The position numbers were made by a program, and so were the translations under genes. A DNA stretch of 6,386 bases from a virus (Duplodnaviria > Heunggongvirae > Uroviricota > Caudoviricetes), in IMG/VR virus record IMGVR_UViG_2529293138_000005, positions 1-6,386 of that record; one strand, given 5' to 3'. This document shows, piece by piece, positions 1-6,386 of this stretch; positions within the stretch are counted from its first letter, which is position 1, and each line of letters starts with the position of its first letter. The notes beneath the pieces were generated by a model that ran no database searches, was not told where the DNA came from, and was given only the letters and a program-made list of their open reading frames with translations.

Positions 1-288
1 ATGAAACTTAAATATTCTGGCTTAACTGCCAGCGGCACCGCTCGGCCTGAAATCCGTAACGGCGATATTTACCGCGATAAATATGGCGGCATGGTAACGA
101 TTAAAGGCGTGGCAGAACGGCGCATCACCTACCGCCGTGAAGGTTACGAATATGATTGCGTGATGCCTGTTTATCAATTCCGGCGTGATTTCACGCTGGT
201 AGGCCAGCGTAAAGCCGTTAATCAGAAACGTGCAACAGGTTATATCCGCAAAATCCGTGAAATGCTGGTCGCAGGGGGTAAGAAATGA
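1..288 (+). CDS. Hypothetical small basic protein (95 aa); begins at the window edge, so may be 5'-truncated
   Basis: Uninterrupted ORF in the same orientation as the downstream operon. Its stop TGA (286-288) overlaps the next ATG (285-287) as ATGA, suggesting translational coupling. No recognisable family motif. Confidence 0.45.
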   Translation: MKLKYSGLTASGTARPEIRNGDIYRDKYGGMVTIKGVAERRITYRREGYEYDCVMPVYQFRRDFTLVGQRKAVNQKRATGYIRKIREMLVAGGKK

Positions 289-452
289 AACTGGCACCGA
301 ACGTAAAACGATTACCGAAAGATAAATACACCGATGCGATTATTTTTGCGGGTATTGATGCTCACTCATTCGCAGAGCATTACATCATTGCACAGGCCAA
401 AAAAGCAGGCGATCCAGTCCCTCCCGTTTATCTGGGGGCGTTAATCAGTTAA
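285..452 (+). CDS. Hypothetical small protein (55 aa), absent from the supplied ORF track
   Basis: ATG at 285 preceded by a strong Shine-Dalgarno-like GGGGGT at about 273-278. Hand translation gives MKLAPNVKRLPKDKYTDAIIFAGIDAHSFAEHYIIAQAKKAGDPVPPVYLGALIS with TAA at 450-452. Start overlaps the upstream stop. Confidence 0.4.
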   Translation: MKLAPNVKRLPKDKYTDAIIFAGIDAHSFAEHYIIAQAKKAGDPVPPVYLGALIS

Positions 453-502
453 GCGAACTGGATAACCTCCAGATTGTTGATGATGGGCGATACAGGGCGA
501 CG

Positions 503-1684
503 GTGATACGCGCCGGAAATATTGAAGAGCCGCAGCTGTTAACCATCGCCACGAAACTGGCGATCGCCGGAGTCCAGGAGGCGCGGCTACTTTCTGAAAA
601 TTTCGAATTGCTGGAGGAATGGAGCGACCAGCTTCCACGGCTTAGGGAGACATGGGAACGCGGGGAAAGCCTGAGCAACCAGCGAAAAACCACGCTACCA
701 ATGAGCGTGGGATCTGCCGGATACGACACACAACTTGATTACGTGGTTAAGGGAATTATTCCGGCTGTATCGCTTTGCAGCATATACGGGGCGAGCGGTT
801 CCTATAAATCATTCCTTGCCGGATCGTGGGCGTGTCACGTTTCCACTGGCCGCCAGTGGGGATGCCGCAGGGTGGCGCATGGCGCTGTTCTCTATGTGGT
901 TGGTGAAGGCGGTATCGGCGTTCCTCGTCGTGTAAAAGCCTGGGAGGTTGTGCACGGTGAGCAGGTGAAAAATCTGTATCTGGTAAACCGTCCCATCTTT
1001 CCGGCTGCCCCGCTTGATGTTGATGAAATGGTTATCGCTGCCCGTCAGGTGGAACGGGAAACGGGTAAACCTGTACGCATGATTATTCTGGATACGCTGG
1101 CGCGGTGCTTTGGTGGCAATGATGAAAATGATTCCCGTGATATGGGGGCGTTTATCCGTGGGTGTGACGAACTGAAACGACGCACAGGGGCCACGGTGCT
1201 GGTGGTTCACCATTCCGGCAAGGATGAAACAAAGGGAGCGCGTGGTTCCAGTGCATTTCGTGCTTCGCTGGATGCTGAATACCGGATACGCAGGGAGGAC
1301 GCAGGAAGCGAAGCCCTGGTTATCTCATGCACCAAAATGAAGGATGCGGAGGAACTCAAAGAAGCCGCATATGACTTACGCGTGGTGGAGCTTTTTACCG
1401 ACGCTGACGGGGAGTTAATCACGTCGCTGGTGGTGGTGGATAAGCCGCGCCCTCCCGTTGAACTGGAGCGCATCGAGGAGGCTGGCAACAAGACGGAAAA
1501 CCATACCGCGCTATGGGGATGCATACGTTCACGCACACAGAACGGCGACAAGTGCACGATCCCGCTGTTACGTGATGACATGAAAAAACTGGGGTACGAA
1601 ATGAAAAACTTCCGGCGCTGGCTGTACAAGCTGGAAAAAGACAGGGTTATTCGTATCGATGGGGATGATGTAGCGCCGCTATAA
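503..1684 (+). CDS. Replication protein, RepA-like RecA-family ATPase (AAA_25-type helicase/initiator) with a C-terminal extension
   Basis: Motifs read directly from the translation: P-loop-like GASGSYKS, Walker-B-like MIILDTLARCFGG, and HHSGKDETKGARGSSAFRASLDAEY, typical of RepA/AAA_25 proteins. GTG start at 503; an in-frame ATG at 701 is an alternative start. Followed immediately by an iteron-like block. Confidence 0.75.
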   Translation: MIRAGNIEEPQLLTIATKLAIAGVQEARLLSENFELLEEWSDQLPRLRETWERGESLSNQRKTTLPMSVGSAGYDTQLDYVVKGIIPAVSLCSIYGASGSYKSFLAGSWACHVSTGRQWGCRRVAHGAVLYVVGEGGIGVPRRVKAWEVVHGEQVKNLYLVNRPIFPAAPLDVDEMVIAARQVERETGKPVRMIILDTLARCFGGNDENDSRDMGAFIRGCDELKRRTGATVLVVHHSGKDETKGARGSSAFRASLDAEYRIRREDAGSEALVISCTKMKDAEELKEAAYDLRVVELFTDADGELITSLVVVDKPRPPVELERIEEAGNKTENHTALWGCIRSRTQNGDKCTIPLLRDDMKKLGYEMKNFRRWLYKLEKDRVIRIDGDDVAPL

Positions 1685-1860
1685 AGTGAGGTGCAAAAGC
1701 GAGGTGTATAGAAGGAGGGCCAAAATTAGACCGCTACCCCTCACTTTTCGGCCTGTATACATCCTCAAAAGTGAGGGGCAAAAAAATACTTATGAAACAC
1801 ACACATAGAAAAAGCGAAAATCTCAAGCGAGACGGAGCCAGACACTTTAAAAAGTGAGGC
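1682..1860. repeat. Iteron-like repeat block (four copies of an AAAGTGAGG-type motif, one inverted); candidate origin or operator region
   Basis: Motif copies at 1683-1693, 1737-1751 (inverted), 1767-1778 and 1850-1860. Copies 1737-1748 (CCCCTCACTTTT) and 1767-1778 (AAAAGTGAGGGG) form a perfect 12-bp inverted repeat around an 18-nt spacer containing GTATAC. Region is AT-rich and sits directly after the rep stop. Confidence 0.5.
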
Positions 1861-1883
1861 GAAAAACTGAGAGTTTGCGAGAA

Positions 1884-2135
1884 ATGAACAAAATGCGTAG
1901 AGACAGAACAGAGCCAAAATATAAAGCGTTAGACATGACAGAGCACGCTTTAAAGGTGGCAATCAGAACGATAGACCGCCACGCGGGGGAAGGATACGCG
2001 AAGGAACATCCCGACATGATAAGCGCATTCATGACCACAGCAGCGGCAAACTTTGCCACGCTGACAGAACGGGAGATTGCCGAAGCGGAACAGGTAACAA
2101 CCATCAACGTTAAAACCGGAGAGCAGACAGCATGA
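1884..2135 (+). CDS. Hypothetical protein (about 83 aa), translationally coupled to the ssb-like gene
   Basis: ATG at 1884 with GAGAG about 10 nt upstream. The track's GTG start at 1854 lies inside an iteron copy and is less likely. Stop TGA 2133-2135 overlaps the ssb ATG at 2132 (ATGA). Confidence 0.5.
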   Translation: MNKMRRDRTEPKYKALDMTEHALKVAIRTIDRHAGEGYAKEHPDMISAFMTTAAANFATLTEREIAEAEQVTTINVKTGEQTA

Positions 2136-2555
2136 CAGCACAGATAGCGGCTTACGGACGGCTGGTGGCTGACCCGCAGTTAAAGACCACCAGCAAGGGT
2201 ACACAGATGACGATGGCGAGTATGGCGGTCCCCCTTCCGTGCAGCCAGGCAGATGACGGAGCGGCGACGATGTGGTTATCCGTCATGGCGTTTGGCAGAC
2301 AGGCCGACGCACTGGCAAAACAACCACAAAGGCGAACTGGTGAGCGTGGCGGGTAACATGCAGGTAAGTCAGTGGACAGGCCAGAACGGCGAAACGCGGC
2401 AGGGCTGGCAGGTTATCGCAGACAGCGTAATCAGTGCGAGAACGGCGCGACCTGGCGGCAAAAAAGGCCAGCAGGGGCAGGCTACTGATGCACTGAACAG
2501 GGCAAAACAACAGGCGGGTAACGATGATCCGTACGGGGATAACATACCGTTTTAA
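2132..2555 (+). pseudogene. ssb: Single-stranded DNA-binding protein (SSB) gene split by a +1 frameshift near 2317-2324
   Basis: The N-terminal part (frame of 2132) reads AYGRLVADPQLKTTSKGTQMTMASMAV...WLSVMAFGRQADALAK, an SSB OB-fold pattern. The C-terminal part (frame of 2253) reads HKGELVSVAGNMQVSQWTGQNGETRQGWQVIADSVI and ends in the acidic tail DDPYGDNIPF (compare E. coli SSB ...DDDIPF). The two halves are in different frames; removing one A from the AAAA run at 2317-2320 restores a continuous reading ...ALANNHKGELV.... Confidence 0.65.
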
Positions 2556-2571
2556 GCAACGAGTAACAGAA

Positions 2572-2593
2572 GCCGGAGAAGTCCGGCTTTTTT
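2572..2593 (+). terminator. Rho-independent terminator closing the rep-ssb operon
   Basis: Stem GCCGGA, loop GAAG, stem TCCGGC, then TTTTTT; located 17 nt after the ssb stop. Confidence 0.7.
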
Positions 2594-2600
2594 ATGCCCC

Positions 2601-2628
2601 AAAAAAAGCCCGGAGGGTCTTATCGGGC
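2601..2628 (-). terminator. Possible minus-strand terminator; with the previous hairpin forms a bidirectional pair
   Basis: On the minus strand: stem AGCCCG, 11-nt loop, stem CGGGCT, then TTTTTTT (complement of the A-run 2601-2607). No convincing minus-strand gene upstream of it in the window. Confidence 0.3.
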
Positions 2629-2710
2629 TTTTGCATATGAGGTTTTTTTGGTGCGCTGACACACATGATCGGGATAATAATTTCATAATTTGCAACATAA
2701 CTCAATATTA

Positions 2711-2738
2711 TTGCACAAAATGCAATCCTGATTATAAT
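2711..2738 (+). promoter_or_regulatory. Near-consensus sigma70-type promoter with an overlapping dyad, upstream of the head operon
   Basis: -35 TTGCAC (2711-2716), 16-nt spacer, -10 TATAAT (2733-2738). The -35 lies inside the dyad TTGCA-N5-TGCAA (2711-2725), and the -10 lies inside the perfect palindrome GATTATAATC (2730-2739). Confidence 0.45.
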
Positions 2739-2796
2739 CATGACTGGATGAACAATCCAGTTATGATTTTTAAGTTCGAAGAGGAATTTCTTACTA

Positions 2797-3002
2797 TGGC
2801 TGAAGAGAAAAAAGGCGGTGTTTCGGTGTACATAAGCTCCGACATCGTGGAGGCGCTCAAGGAACGCCACCAGCAGAACGTAAAAGCAGGCATTGCGGCA
2901 GGACTTGATCCACTGGCGATGGTTGAGCCGTCAACAGGCTGGCAGGTGCGCGCCTATTTACGTGCGGCGCTGGGCATGAATCAGACTCATGGGGGTGAAT
3001 AA
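2797..3002 (+). CDS. Hypothetical small protein (68 aa) at the head of the capsid operon; possibly a ribbon-helix-helix-like or scaffold-like protein
   Basis: ATG at 2797 with AAGAGGAA upstream. Stop TAA (3000-3002) shares a base with the capsid ATG (3002-3004). The longer track ORF starting at 2631 would overlap the promoter region and is rejected. Confidence 0.5.
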
Positions 3003-4057
3003 TGGCAGGCAAAGCAACGGCACTTACCACTAATCAGCTTTTCACGTACATGAATCGCGGGGATATTGCGGAATTTAAATTCAGTCCGCTGTTTACCACG
3101 CTGTTTTTCACGAACGTGGCGACATTCAGCACCCAAAACATCATGCTGGATACCCTGGACATTGAAGAAGTCACTATGTCGGCGTTTTGTTCTCCTATGG
3201 TTGGCAGCCAGGTACAGCGCGATAAAGGGTACGAAACCAGCACAATCAAACCTGGCTACATGAAGCCAAAGCACGAAATCGATCCAACAAAGACCATCAT
3301 GCGCATGGCTGGAGAAGATCCGGCACAGCTTAACGACCCTACCTACCGCCGTATGCGCCTGATTACTGGCAACATGCGCCGCCAGATAAACGCCATTAAA
3401 GCGCGCGTGGAATGGCTGGCGGTGAATGCGATAACGACCGGAAAAAACATCATTGAGGGCGAAGGCATAGAACGCTATGAAATCGACTGGAAGATACCGG
3501 GAAAAAACATCATAGAGCAGGCCAAAGGCCGTAAATGGTCCGAGCAGGACAAAGAAACCCACGATCCAATCTATGATATCGAGCTTTATGCGGATCAAGC
3601 AGATTGCCCCGCCAACGTCATGATTATGGGCGCAGAGGTATGGCGCACGTTACGCAGCTTTAAAAAATTCCGTGAACTGTACGATCTTTCCCGTGGTTCA
3701 GAATCCGCCGCAGAACTGGCCTGTAAAAACCTGGGCGAAGTGGTGAGCTTTAAAGGCTATCTGGGCGATATTGCCCTTATCGTCTATTCCGGCAAATATA
3801 CTGACAGCGACGGCACCGAAAAATATTTCCTTGAGCCTGATTTGCTGGTCCTTGGCAACACCAACAATAAAGGGCTGGTGGCCTATGGTGCGATTATGGA
3901 TCAGGAAGCGGTAAGAACGGGCGCAACGCAAAACATGTACTACCCGAAAAACTGGATTGAGGACGGCGATCCGGCGATTGAGTACGTGCAGACACACAGC
4001 GCACCGCAGCCGGTTCCGGCAGATATTCGCAAATTTGTTACCGTCAAAATTGGTTAA
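3002..4057 (+). CDS. Major capsid protein, lambda gpE family (351 aa)
   Basis: Collinear similarity to lambda gpE as recalled: FKFSPLF versus KFKFDPLF, TIKPGYMKPKHEIDP versus FTPGYVKPKHEVNP, DPTYRRMRLI versus DPAYRRRRII, FKGYLGDIALIVYSG versus YKGMYGDVAIVVYSG, LVLGNT versus MVLGNT, YPKNWIEDGDPA versus YPKNWVTTGDPA. Strong SD (GGGGGTGA) before the ATG. Confidence 0.9.
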   Translation: MAGKATALTTNQLFTYMNRGDIAEFKFSPLFTTLFFTNVATFSTQNIMLDTLDIEEVTMSAFCSPMVGSQVQRDKGYETSTIKPGYMKPKHEIDPTKTIMRMAGEDPAQLNDPTYRRMRLITGNMRRQINAIKARVEWLAVNAITTGKNIIEGEGIERYEIDWKIPGKNIIEQAKGRKWSEQDKETHDPIYDIELYADQADCPANVMIMGAEVWRTLRSFKKFRELYDLSRGSESAAELACKNLGEVVSFKGYLGDIALIVYSGKYTDSDGTEKYFLEPDLLVLGNTNNKGLVAYGAIMDQEAVRTGATQNMYYPKNWIEDGDPAIEYVQTHSAPQPVPADIRKFVTVKIG

Positions 4058-4068
4058 CGGGGGATTCT

Positions 4069-4404
4069 ATGGACACTCCATACATTGAGTTATTTGCAGG
4101 CAGTCAGCAGGTATCCACGACACTGGTACATTTTGCCGCTGATGCTGGCGTTATTCAGGAATTTACCCCGCTGATGCTGGCGGACAATGGCGAGTTTAAG
4201 CCGTGGGATGGTCAGGAATCTGGCAAGGCTGTTTATCTGACTTCGTACCCAGTGGACACGTCAACGCAGAAATCAGCACAGTGTTACAAGACGGGGATAT
4301 TCAATATTGCCGCCGTTAACTGGCCTGAGAGCGTCGACACCGACGTGAAAAAATGCGCCGCCTTTGCGGGTTCTGGCGTATCCGTTCAGCCGCTGGCGCG
4401 ATAA
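4069..4404 (+). CDS. Head decoration protein, lambda gpD family (111 aa)
   Basis: Similarity to lambda gpD as recalled: TPLMLADNGEFKPWDG versus TPLMLDTSSRKLVAWDG, and YKTGIFNIAAVNWPESVDTDVKKCAAFAGSGVSV versus [44 protein letters not shown] upstream. Gene order E then D is the reverse of lambda (D then E). Confidence 0.85.
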   Translation: MDTPYIELFAGSQQVSTTLVHFAADAGVIQEFTPLMLADNGEFKPWDGQESGKAVYLTSYPVDTSTQKSAQCYKTGIFNIAAVNWPESVDTDVKKCAAFAGSGVSVQPLAR

Positions 4405-4478
4405 GCAGGGGGAACGATGGCAGAAACCCAGGCGATGACGGCGACATCGATCGCATACTGAAAACCATCTGAGACAAG

Positions 4479-4500
4479 GCCGGAGAAATCCGGCTTTTTT
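4479..4500 (+). terminator. Rho-independent terminator after the decoration gene, immediately upstream of cosQ
   Basis: Stem GCCGGA, loop GAAA, stem TCCGGC, then TTTTTT. Differs from the terminator at 2572-2593 by a single loop base. Confidence 0.7.
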
Positions 4501-4572
4501 GCGGGTCCTTTCCGGCGATCCGACAGGTTACGGGGCGGCGACCTCGCGCGTTTTCGCTATTTATGAGCCTTT
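4501..4572 (+). other. Lambda-type cos site 1 (cosQ-cosN), rightward orientation; cosN GGGCGGCGACCT at 4533-4544
   Basis: GCGGGTCCTTTCCGGCGATCCGACAGGTTACG, then GGGCGGCGACCT, then CGCGCGTTTTCGCTATTTATGAG. This is near-identical to the lambda right-end/left-end junction as recalled (...ACGGGTCCTTTCCGGTGATCCGACAGGTTACG | GGGCGGCGACCTCGCGGGTTTTCGCTATTTATGAAAA...). Confidence 0.8.
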
Positions 4573-4574
4573 TC

Positions 4575-4651
4575 AGGTTGGTGGTGGTGGTTTTGTTGTT
4601 CGCTGTATCTCTATGAATAAAAAGGGAAAGATAACCACAAAACACCAACCT
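4575..4651 (+). repeat. cosB-like region of cos 1: inverted repeats around an A-rich spacer, unlike lambda R sites
   Basis: AGGTTGGTGGTGGTGGTTTTGTTGTT (4575-4600) and AACCACAAAACACCAACCT (4633-4651). The 9-bp cores AGGTTGGTG (4575-4583) and CACCAACCT (4643-4651) are exact reverse complements. Lies between cosN and the terS start, where lambda carries its Nu1-binding sites. Confidence 0.4.
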
Positions 4652-4692
4652 GAAGCATTAACTAAGTGTGGGTATTGATGAAATCGCACCTG

Positions 4693-5220
4693 ATGAATAA
4701 AAAAACCATGGCGCAAAGCTGCCGTGTAAGTGCTACAGCGTTCGACAAGTGGGGAGTGACTCCCGTTGAACGTAAAGGCCGTGAGGCGTTTTATGATGTT
4801 GCCAGCGTGATAGACAATAGGGTTAACAATGCAATTAACCAGGTTACAAACGACAAAGGCGATATTGATGATGATGAACTTTTACGCGTAAGAATCAGAT
4901 TACTGACAGCACAGGCGGAGGCGCAGGAGCTTAAAAACGAGCGCGAACGCGGCGACGTGATTGATACAGGTTTTTGCCTGTACGCGCTTTCAAAGCTGGC
5001 GAGCCAGATTTCTTCAATCATGGACAGTTTGCCGCTTACCATGCAAAGGCGCTTCCCGCAGATTACTCCCGCTATGCTGGATGGGCTTAAAAGGGAAGTG
5101 GTTAAAGCCTGTAATGCCAGTGCCACAGTTGCCGACAACCTACCGAAGATACTGGCTGATTACCTGATGGAAACTACCGGAGACGTACCGGAGAAGTTGC
5201 TACAGAAGAAAGTCGAGTAA
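4693..5220 (+). CDS. Terminase small subunit, lambda Nu1-like
   Basis: C-terminal half collinear with lambda Nu1 as recalled: LTAQAEAQELKNERE versus LTRAQADAQELKNARD, GFCLYALSKLASQISSIMDSLPLTMQRRFPQ versus AFCTFVLSRIAGEIASILDGLPLSVQRRFPE. The N-terminal putative DNA-binding region (MNKKTMAQSCRVSATAFDKWGV) is divergent. Start ambiguous: GTG 4666, ATG 4678, ATG 4693 or ATG 4708; 4693 chosen because it aligns with the Nu1 N-terminus. No large terminase ORF follows. Confidence 0.85.
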   Translation: MNKKTMAQSCRVSATAFDKWGVTPVERKGREAFYDVASVIDNRVNNAINQVTNDKGDIDDDELLRVRIRLLTAQAEAQELKNERERGDVIDTGFCLYALSKLASQISSIMDSLPLTMQRRFPQITPAMLDGLKREVVKACNASATVADNLPKILADYLMETTGDVPEKLLQKKVE

Positions 5221-5246
5221 CAGACGCGCAATTATTGAACAAAACT

Positions 5247-5450
5247 GAGAAACGACATGAAAGCGTCATAAATCGCCATTTTAGATGATTACCGTGTCGT
5301 TTCTTTTTATTGTGTATCTATTTAAAAACAAATAGTTATGTTCGAGAATTACCGACATGCTTTTTCCAGAAAAATTTTCATAAACAGATAAAAACCGCGA
5401 GGTCGCCGCCCCGTAACGGGCCATAATTCCAGGAAGGACCCGACGACACC
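5247..5450 (-). other. Lambda-type cos site 2 in inverted orientation (cosN AGGTCGCCGCCC at 5400-5411, i.e. GGGCGGCGACCT on the minus strand), with lambda-like R-site inverted repeats
   Basis: Reverse complement of 5343-5411 reads GGGCGGCGACCTCGCGGTTTTTATCTGTTTATGAAAATTTTTCTGG..., resembling the lambda left end (GGGCGGCGACCTCGCGGGTTTTCGCTATTTATGAAAATTTTCCGG). GAAACGACA (5249-5257) and TGTCGTTTC (5295-5303) are exact inverted 9-mers resembling lambda R-site cores as recalled. The cosQ-like side (5412-5450) is only partly lambda-like. Confidence 0.7.
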
Positions 5451-5475
5451 AGACAATCAGAACATCGGGAACACA

Positions 5476-5760
5476 ATGACAGAAGCCGAACTACTGAAAG
5501 TAATCTGCCGTATTACCGGAATCAGCCAGACAGCAGGCAAACAGGAGGCCACGCAGCCGGACAGCGTGATAGCCGAAAATTACGCGCGTGTGGTGGCTGA
5601 GGTGATGCGCCGTGATGGTATTGAGCTTAACGGCGTGGATATGCGCGACATACGGATCAGAGTTCTGGAGTTGTTGTCATATCGTCGCCGCGTGGAGATG
5701 TATCGGGAGAGCGAGAAAAAGACTTACCAGTGGAAGAAACCGGAGCGGCTGCGTACGTAA
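5476..5760 (+). CDS. Hypothetical protein (94 aa) immediately beyond cos 2
   Basis: ATG at 5476 with GGGAA about 8 nt upstream. No recognisable motif. Arg/Glu-rich C-terminus. Confidence 0.4.
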   Translation: MTEAELLKVICRITGISQTAGKQEATQPDSVIAENYARVVAEVMRRDGIELNGVDMRDIRIRVLELLSYRRRVEMYRESEKKTYQWKKPERLRT

Positions 5761-5933
5761 TGCGTACGGACATCGAGACAAAGACGAACAGTATTCTGGT
5801 TCAGTGCAAAACAACGTTAAACGTGGTTTTGCGTCCAGAGTCATCGTAATGGTTTTATGCGTCCTGCGTTGCGCTGGTGGATTTGAGGGATATAGCTGGT
5901 AGTGGTAAATCCCTTTTGCGTGGCGGTGCGATG

Positions 5934-6021
5934 GCTGCATGGTGGAAATCACCACGAAGGGGAGGTGATAAACACTCCCCCTTTTCGTGTGGTGCATGGT
6001 CAAAATGACCACGGAGGGGAG
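5934..6021. repeat. Two copies of an approximately 30-nt direct repeat (period 57 bp) with embedded hairpins, in a non-coding region
   Basis: GCTGCATGGTGGAAATCACCACGAAGGGGAG (5934-5964) versus GGTGCATGGTCAAAATGACCACGGAGGGGAG (5991-6021). Embedded palindrome TGGTCA-AAA-TGACCA (5997-6011). Imperfect hairpin CACGAAGGGGAG...CTCCCCCTTTTCGTG (about 5953-5989). Hairpin GACTATC-TCAAA-GATAGTC (6026-6044). Confidence 0.4.
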
Positions 6022-6271
6022 AACCGACTATCTCAAAGATAGTCACCCCATACCAGGATCACGCTAATAACGCACAACAGAGTGACCCATAGCCACCCTG
6101 TTCAACCGTTCCGGCTGACTGGACAGCATCATCACCATGATGGTGACGCAGCCCACCAGCAACCATAACGATTTCCTTTACAGCTGATGTGCTTTTTTGC
6201 TGATAAGGCGTAACCAGTTGATTGTTCCAGAATCACCCATTGGGGGAGGCTGGGCGGCCTGCTGTGGGCTT

Positions 6272-6288
6272 TTCCACCATTGGTGGAA
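6272..6288. repeat. Perfect 17-bp palindrome TTCCACCA-T-TGGTGGAA
   Basis: Read directly from the sequence; 8-bp arms around a single central base, typical geometry for a dimeric DNA-binding protein site or a tight hairpin. Confidence 0.3.
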
Positions 6289-6386
6289 AGGTGCACATCT
6301 GGATCATCATTACGGTGATCAATGGTATGTAAAACCCACCAGCCTGATTGACATTTAACCGGAAAAAAGCCAGGTAGCCCCGTCAT

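Follow-up and report, generated by a model that had tools for sequence, protein, structure and literature searches.

This study concerns a stretch of viral DNA of 6,386 nucleotides, positions 1 to 6,386 of the IMG/VR record IMGVR_UViG_2529293138_000005 (the whole of it hereafter called the window), and in particular a small head operon within it that encodes a protein of 68 residues (orf68), a major capsid protein related to gpE of phage lambda and a head decoration protein related to lambda gpD. We conclude, with a probability of roughly 0.85, that the window represents one half, with the replication and late genes, of a classical phage-inducible chromosomal island (PICI) of the EcCICFT073 type at the roxA/phoQ attachment site of Escherichia coli, and that the life cycle of this element consists of induction by a lambdoid cos helper phage, replication from its own replicon, cutting at lambda-type cosN sites and packaging into helper-sized heads. 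The head module is the capsid operon in the late zone of such an island. The pair of capsid and decoration genes is already known from earlier descriptions of these elements (Fillol-Salom et al., 2018, PMC6092414; Mageeney et al., 2023, PMC10111431; PMC10085698). The contribution of the present analysis lies in the prevalence, selection and lineage data for the module, which, as far as sequences can tell, argue that the encoded proteins do something.

The entire window occurs without any difference at positions 40-6425 of the E. coli draft contig AFDZ01000011.1, in which its right end is followed after approximately 230 bp by phoQ, phoP, purB, hflD, mnmA, nudJ, rluE and icd. Over phoQ-phoP-purB, the identity with the E. 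coli chromosome amounts to 98.4%, an attR core lies approximately 120-145 bp past the right end of the window and the right junction at phoQ matches the PICI att site. The contig begins 39 bp to the left of the window, and an int and alpA region of this copy would fall outside it. Where complete E. coli genomes contain the homologous element, it lies between roxA and phoQ, is bounded by direct repeats of 21-31 bp and measures 11.2-11.5 kb. The gene order of these relatives is int, a gene for a 62-residue helix-turn-helix regulator of the AlpA type, small and Icd-like genes, DUF4222, replicase, the gene for a single-stranded DNA-binding protein (ssb), orf68, the capsid gene, the decoration gene, an optional gene for a 137-residue protein, the small terminase gene terS or rppA, a gene for a 93-residue protein and attR. 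The integrase gene and the att repeats are present in the complete relatives L001, L002, L004 and L009, and the AlpA-type regulator was found in all four.

An earlier note on this DNA had read the region as part of a satellite, a reading that portal, protease and tail genes just outside the window would have turned into an ordinary rearranged prophage. None were found to the right, where the contig leads into phoQ-phoP-purB. Analysis of the open reading frames with Pfam and PHROGs agreed with the note that the window itself contains no portal, protease, scaffold, large terminase (terL) or tail genes, and none of these were found in the right flank either. The absence of portal, protease, terL and tail genes extends to the complete relatives of 11.2-11.5 kb, a size that compares with approximately 10-15 kb in the PICI model, and lysis, HNH and head-tail connector genes are missing from the window, the right flank and the complete relatives as well. 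Searches of the window and its right end for Rfam families and tRNAs found none. The modules of a PICI are present: an own replication module consists of a RepA/AAA_25 helicase gene (E=2.1e-42), a probable origin with iterons at 1680-1871 and ssb, with 1-nt frameshifts in both genes, and downstream of the replicon there are matches to Phage_cap_E, HDPD and Phage_Nu1, in that order, representing the capsid, decoration and small terminase genes. Capsid morphogenesis and the small terminase are among the five core components of the SatelliteFinder PICI model (PMC10085698), and a capsid gene occurs in 21 of 29 reference Gram-negative PICIs, making it the commonest late gene of these elements (Mageeney et al., 2023, PMC10111431). 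The satellite reading was thus borne out: the element is a PICI of the EcCICFT073 type, in which RepA helicase, iterons and SSB make up the replicon, accompanied by two lambda-type cosN sites and a small terminase (TerS) that resembles Nu1.

All open reading frames of the gene set lie on the + strand. The operon begins with orf68 at 2796-3002 (phrog_3255, E=1.3e-37), which the earlier note had correctly placed ahead of the capsid gene, with a start that was one base late (2797). Its stop codon overlaps the start of the capsid gene (TAATG), which occupies 3002-4057 and encodes a protein of 351 residues from the lambda gpE family, the orthologue of c1499 from EcCICFT073. In the Pfam profile search, this protein matched Phage_cap_E (PF03864) with E=3.7e-51 and 174.6 bits, compared with a cut-off of 22.9, over residues 26-349. 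The decoration gene at 4069-4404 encodes a protein of 111 residues from the gpD/SHP family, the orthologue of c1500, which matched HDPD (PF02924) with E=8.7e-18 and 65 bits (cut-off 29.1). Both profile matches confirm the E-like and D-like assignments of the earlier note, and PHROGs likewise returned a major head protein (2.4e-106) for the first and a head decoration protein (3.9e-27) for the second. Among PDB entries, the decoration protein matched 1TD0 (E=7e-14), which bears the title 'Head decoration protein', and the lambda capsid decoration protein 7VII_H (1.4e-9). The best PDB match of the capsid protein was the crystal structure 3BQW, 'putative capsid protein of prophage', with E=5.7e-230; this entry appears to be the CFT073 protein c1499 itself, as the aligned sequence starts exactly as the CFT073 protein does.

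EcCICFT073, the model PICI of Gram-negative bacteria, is among the complete relatives and belongs to strain CFT073. The window and EcCICFT073 have the roxA/phoQ attachment site, the gene order from DUF4222 to the right end and two lambda-type cosN sites in inverted orientation in common. Over the head operon, including the promoter region, the DNA identity amounts to 93.8%, and the proteins are 94% (orf68), 95.4% (capsid, c1499) and 96.4% (decoration, c1500) identical. The novelty that the earlier note had seen in a satellite capsid pair based on lambda E and D therefore does not hold, as the same pair, with 95-96% amino acid identity, is c1499/c1500. The two islands differ in their replicases, which is a RepA/AAA_25 helicase in the window but a 584-residue primase in EcCICFT073, in a PerC gene that only EcCICFT073 contains, and in the gene for a 137-residue protein behind the decoration gene, which is the site of the c1501::tetA marker in EcCICFT073 and is deleted in the window. 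This latter gene (L004 19084-19497) is present in CFT073, L002 and L009, and deleted in the window and in L001; its last approximately 60 bp are left near 4414-4470. Furthermore, the window encodes a full-length Nu1-like TerS where EcCICFT073 encodes RppA (c1503), and these two proteins are not detectably similar.

Compared with phages, the head genes look like members of a separate branch. Lambda and the phage-21-like prophage of CFT073 encode proteins of the same Pfam families, with capsid proteins that are collinear with the satellite protein over their full length, but the identity is limited to 42-45% for E and 37-45% for D (42% over 343 residues for the window's capsid protein and lambda E). 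In lambda, E and D have C/Nu3, B, W, FI and FII as neighbours, none of which is found beside E and D in the window, where the gene order is also reversed. The E-then-D order is constant in PICIs, whereas lambda, the lambdoid prophage of CFT073 and the best phage matches all have D-then-E, confirming the reversal that the earlier note had pointed out. Among 50,697 deposited phage records, the closest capsid protein was 47% and the closest decoration protein 42% identical, and orf68 was not found in any of them. Because E reaches at most 47% and D at most 42% identity to deposited phage proteins, orf68 does not occur in those phages and the order is reversed, the head cassette is, on this comparative evidence, an old satellite-specific lineage and not a recent capture from a helper. 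The argument of the earlier note that the E-then-D order speaks against a left-over lambda operon is thereby upheld.

Of 5426 complete E. coli genomes, 598 contained the 1.6-kb head module at a coverage of at least 80%, nearly always as a single copy. In seven copies that were compared, all three genes were of identical length and free of stop codons. The pairwise ratio of nonsynonymous to synonymous substitution rates (dN/dS) was 0.08-0.13 for the capsid gene, with synonymous divergence (dS) up to approximately 1, 0.04-0.31 and mostly at most 0.2 for the decoration gene, and 0.05-0.44 for orf68. Between the window and contig L007, all nine substitutions in the capsid gene were synonymous, leaving the capsid proteins identical. 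Judged by these substitution patterns, strong purifying selection (dN/dS ~0.1) acts on the capsid and decoration genes, which are not relics. A decaying, functionless remnant of the head operon of a lambdoid prophage might have been suspected from the presence of only two head genes, from the lack of a known phenotype and from the frameshifts in replicase and ssb in this assembly. Against a dN/dS of ~0.1 over dS values up to ~1, seven of seven intact copies of equal length, an architecture that is fixed in 598 genomes, a gene order opposite to that of phages and the lack of any phage relative above 47% identity, we consider such a remnant very improbable; moreover, the relatives carry att repeats and their own integrase, and the model element is mobile (PMC6092414). 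The selection analysis effectively refutes a degraded prophage.

The function of the two genes has been addressed genetically in EcCICFT073, where c1499 was described as putative capsid protein and c1500 as head decoration protein (Fillol-Salom et al., 2018, PMC6092414). Helper-dependent induction, packaging and transfer of EcCICFT073 were demonstrated with phage 4, lambda and phi80 (PMC6092414). Each of the two genes was deleted to ask whether they act like Ccm of the staphylococcal island SaPIbov5, and the inhibition of lambda plaque formation was unchanged (PMC6092414). With phage 4 as helper, transfer from CFT073 yielded 3.8e3 and 8.7e3 transductants/ml in the two deletions, compared with 8e3 for the parent, and a c1499::cat replacement was efficiently transferred by phage 4, lambda and phi80 (PMC6092414). 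With lambda as helper, all packaged DNA was phage-sized (PMC6092414). A study from 2019 identified RppA (c1503) as the source of interference and of packaging specificity and found EcCICFT073 packaged into phage-sized capsids (PMC6739421). Cloned EcCICFT073 genes other than c1503 did not inhibit lambda (PMC6092414; PMC6739421). A full-text literature search for functions of PICI capsid and decoration genes returned nothing beyond the deletion data of 2018.

These experiments bear directly on the possibility, favored by the earlier note, that the satellite capsid protein redirects capsid size, i.e. that, like Ccm, it forces the formation of small capsids with room for one island genome but not for the genome of the helper. 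SaPIbov5 indeed provides a precedent as a satellite that is packaged by way of cos and encodes a homologue of its helper's major capsid protein, PmCI172, which also has a capsid homologue, makes small heads (PMC6092414), and just three helpers were tested on the orthologue. However, Ccm belongs to another protein family and acts in another host, and the window additionally has a matched decoration protein. More importantly, Ccm makes small capsids, whereas no small capsids were seen with the EcCICFT073 orthologue, whose deletion had no phenotype (PMC6092414): the 95%-identical element was packaged by lambda as phage-sized DNA, the deletions of c1499 and c1500 left interference and transfer unchanged (PMC6092414), and the later study again reported phage-sized capsids (PMC6739421). 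In addition, four lengths of the element (4 x 11.2-11.5 kb = 45-46 kb) correspond arithmetically to approximately 93-95% of the lambda genome, so that four units per lambda head fit full-size heads. The capsid genes are thus probably not a capsid-size redirector, and we rate this explanation as quite unlikely.

What we tentatively propose instead, with the odds somewhat against it, is that the capsid genes provide an accessory supply of shell proteins that co-assemble on the portal and scaffold of the helper, a role that is inferred from their conservation. In the 95%-identical EcCICFT073, according to the literature, a lambdoid cos helper switches on alpA, the island excises and replicates, and the helper terminase packages it into helper-sized heads. 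The capsid and decoration genes are dispensable for this with phage 4 as helper, and likewise for interference during lambda infection. Satellite E would assemble, alone or mixed with helper gpE, on the helper portal and scaffold to form full-size shells, the matched satellite D would cement the shells that contain E, and the island would thereby gain an accessory supply of compatible shell subunits. This supply might matter only with some helpers or under some conditions, e.g. when the E gene of the helper is interrupted or limiting.

The distribution of differences along the two proteins fits a matched pair. The N-arm of the satellite capsid protein (the first ~60 residues) shows 27-37% identity, compared with 43-50% elsewhere, and holds eight of the ten extra residues relative to lambda gpE. 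Satellite D differs most in its first ~30 residues, with an N-terminus that is unrelated to lambda D and a core that is conserved from about residue 32. In lambda, cryo-electron microscopy has placed the N-terminus of gpD against the E-loop and the N-arm of gpE. The diverged segments of satellite E and D are those that would be expected to touch, which is consistent with a co-evolved E-D pair. Decoration proteins bind expanded lattices, and purifying selection on D beside its own E would therefore suggest that expanded lattices with satellite E are built.

The same co-conservation is relevant for an interference function, in which satellite E and D would co-assemble in a dominant-negative manner and thereby poison the capsids of lambdoid phages that are competitors or do not serve as helpers. 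An identity of 42-47% to phage proteins of the gpE family could permit mixed, defective lattices, PICIs are rich in interference functions and the phenotype might be specific to phages outside those tested. Nevertheless, a decoration protein that is conserved together with E (dN/dS 0.04-0.31, mostly at most 0.2) would be superfluous for a pure poison, and the search with PADLOC gave no match. Deletion did not relieve the interference with lambda, and among the cloned genes only c1503 (rppA) inhibited this phage (PMC6092414; PMC6739421), making a poisoning function improbable in our view.

Own capsid genes are also found in two other classes of PICIs. Capsid-forming PICIs such as EcCIEDL933 share int, alpA, rep-type modules and an own capsid protein with the element studied here, but they additionally encode portal, protease, terL, HNH and head-tail connector proteins and make their own small heads. 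The window encodes a capsid protein, a decoration protein and a small terminase, as an island that builds its own heads and steals only the tails would, yet the remaining genes are missing from the window, the right flank and the complete relatives, and the capsid genes of PICIs and capsid-forming PICIs form separate clades (PMC10085698). Assignment to the capsid-forming class is therefore rejected on gene content as extremely improbable. Helper-embedded PICIs (e.g. 11capE) have the four-zone layout and a capsid gene of the E family in common with the window, but reside inside a prophage gene, whereas the element studied here occupies a chromosomal site beside phoQ. A module of orf68, capsid and decoration genes with 82% DNA identity is carried by L008 (1-19502), where it lies in the late region of a prophage between head-tail joining and baseplate genes and represents a helper-embedded PICI. 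L008 carries a gene in the Rpp position in place of terS.

A further possibility, which we regard as unlikely, is that orf68, E and D form a self-contained shell cassette, in which a small protein for assembly or regulation is combined with a coat and a cement protein, and which would build its own or chimeric heads on stolen portal and scaffold with helpers other than lambda, phi80 or phage 4 of CFT073. Being translationally coupled to the capsid gene and placed in front of it, orf68 occupies the usual location of the scaffold gene of phages, a resemblance in position only. The orf68 protein is confined to Enterobacteriaceae, and its AlphaFold2 model consists of two helices with a predicted local distance difference test score (pLDDT) of 72. 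A Foldseek search of the model against the PDB gave no fold match (best E=4.4), Pfam yielded just a sub-threshold hint of the ribbon-helix-helix family RHH_1 (E=0.12), and there was no match in NCBIfam or PADLOC. Neither lambda Nu3 nor the C-terminus of the protease/scaffold protein of the CFT073 prophage showed similarity to orf68, the scores being within those of shuffled sequences. A CpmB-like mini-scaffold is unsupported by these searches, and so is a ribbon-helix-helix regulator, for which the match remained below threshold. The orf68 gene occurs in two allele groups that are separated by a nonsynonymous divergence of 0.18-0.20, in contrast to the neighbouring capsid gene, which varies little among the same elements; this pattern in the aligned copies suggests a recombination boundary at the junction of orf68 and the capsid gene.

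Several points weigh against our conclusions on the island and on accessory shell supply. The left part, in which int and alpA are expected, sits on another contig, so that this copy of the element is no more than presumably complete. Replicase and ssb are frameshifted in this assembly and, if the frameshifts are real, the copy may be non-autonomous. Late expression of satellite E and D, or their incorporation into particles, is a prediction, and the genetic tests, the only ones made, gave no phenotype, leaving shell supply to follow from conservation. Finally, orf68, to which the searches assigned no function, might act in regulation instead of assembly.

The head operon is delimited by putative control signals on both sides. 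Between the replication genes and orf68, two tandem terminator-like hairpins were predicted by folding on the + strand (2571-2632), the first of which (2571-2594) has a folding energy of -15.3 kcal/mol (z -4.4) and is followed by U6, and the second an energy of -12.7 kcal/mol. Alignment showed that both hairpins are kept in the relatives. At its other end, the operon would be closed by an intrinsic terminator on the + strand at 4476-4500, a hairpin of -17.4 kcal/mol (z -3.3) ahead of U6. The terminators that the earlier note had placed on both sides of the operon were thus recovered as hairpins with U-runs at 2571-2594 and 4476-4500, while a generic promoter and terminator scan showed no enrichment and missed both folded hairpins. 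The terminators at 2572-2593 and 4479-4500 agree at 21 of 22 bases and form a direct repeat that brackets the head operon. In L002, approximately 190 bp of additional sequence are inserted at the upstream terminator.

A conserved promoter-like block with a palindrome, to which we tentatively ascribe a function in control of the operon, was delimited on the + strand at 2680-2768 by folding and by alignment of six elements. It contains a perfect TATAAT (2733-2738) with TTGCAC (2711-2716) 16 bp upstream, and the part at approximately 2680-2740 is conserved in all six elements, including one with a capsid-gene dS of ~1. The block has repeated TTGCA motifs and is more strongly conserved than the synonymous sites of the capsid gene. 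The promoter of its own that the earlier note had assigned to the operon is plausible from this conserved block with its perfect TATAAT, although the generic scan reported only weaker sites nearby, at 2682-2711 and 2740-2767. The palindrome at 2736-2768, with arms of 14 bp and a fold z of -5.8, overlaps the -10/+1 region and may be an operator. It is missing from the helper-embedded relative L008.

The left part of the window is occupied by the replication module. It starts with a DUF4222 gene (1-288, + strand, Pfam E=3.1e-25), the last small gene before the replicase, which has the same position in L001, L002, L004 and L009. The replicative helicase of the RepA family (AAA_25, E=2.1e-42; phrog_2850, E=2e-210) extends over 285-1684 on the + strand and is split into 285-452 and 503-1684 by two 1-nt indels (438, 443) relative to L007, in which the gene is intact and encodes 465 residues. 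A conserved hypothetical gene (1884-2135, + strand, phrog_1231, E=2e-51) that is annotated in relatives precedes ssb (2132-2555, + strand), which is split by a 1-nt indel at 2322 relative to the intact copy of 140 codons in L007 and matches the Pfam SSB family with both halves. The indels in helicase and ssb fall in short homopolymer runs. The frameshifts are either errors of the draft assembly or signs of a very recent decay of the replicon in this copy. Directly after the replicase, a repeat search revealed three iterons AAAGTGAGGnGCAAAA at intervals of approximately 84 bp and, at 1737-1757, a further copy in inverted orientation. Because their position matches the published description of Gram-negative PICIs, in which the origin lies just 3' of the replicase (PMC6092414), the region at 1680-1871 is probably the replication origin of the island.

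To the right of the head operon, the lambda cohesive-end sequence GGGCGGCGACCT occurs in two exact copies, one upstream of terS on the + strand and one downstream of it on the - strand. In cos1 (4502-4573, + strand), alignment with the lambda cos junction identified an exact cosN at 4533-4544 with lambda-like flanks, followed by a divergent cosB, and cos2 (5371-5442, - strand) contains the second exact cosN at 5400-5411 in inverted orientation. The two copies lie in an inverted repeat of 72 nt that brackets terS, with a cosQ/cosN side that is near-identical to lambda and a cosB side that is unrelated. In EcCICFT073, two functional cos sites have been described (PMC6092414). The TerS protein (184 residues, 4678-5220, + strand; Phage_Nu1, E=4.3e-23) aligns with lambda Nu1 over 178 residues at 34% identity. 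In L001 and L009 it carries the annotation terminase small subunit, and it represents a common variant that is found, e.g., in O157:H7. BLASTP showed no similarity of TerS to RppA, the slot of which in CFT073 corresponds to L004 19660-20094, and a homologue of Rpp acting by Rpp-type packaging redirection was consequently rejected. A phmmer search with TerS against all PDB chain sequences gave no match at E<=0.01. The presence of TerS in the RppA slot would imply a different route of packaging redirection within otherwise near-identical islands. The island TerS may read its own cosB and recruit the large terminase of the helper. The last gene before attR (5476-5760, + strand, phrog_1561, E=1.4e-50) encodes a conserved hypothetical protein of 94 residues that is 72% identical to the CFT073 copy. 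The approximately 750 bp between this gene and attR (5761-6386 of the window; 5800-6650 of the source contig, L006) contain no convincing open reading frame and no Rfam match, and an unusually high GC skew was observed (0.27 at 5601-6000).

It has been recognized since 2018 that a capsid gene is retained in most Gram-negative PICIs although no assay tried so far has required it, and in the element described here this extends to a matched decoration gene. The purifying selection, the lack of a close phage relative, the fixed reversed order and the upstream open reading frame that occurs only in satellites sharpen the question that follows from this. If orf68, E and D did form a self-contained shell cassette, it would stand functionally midway between the classical and the capsid-forming PICIs, and it would explain why the module is retained with a dN/dS of ~0.1 in approximately 11% of E. 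coli genomes while lacking a laboratory phenotype.

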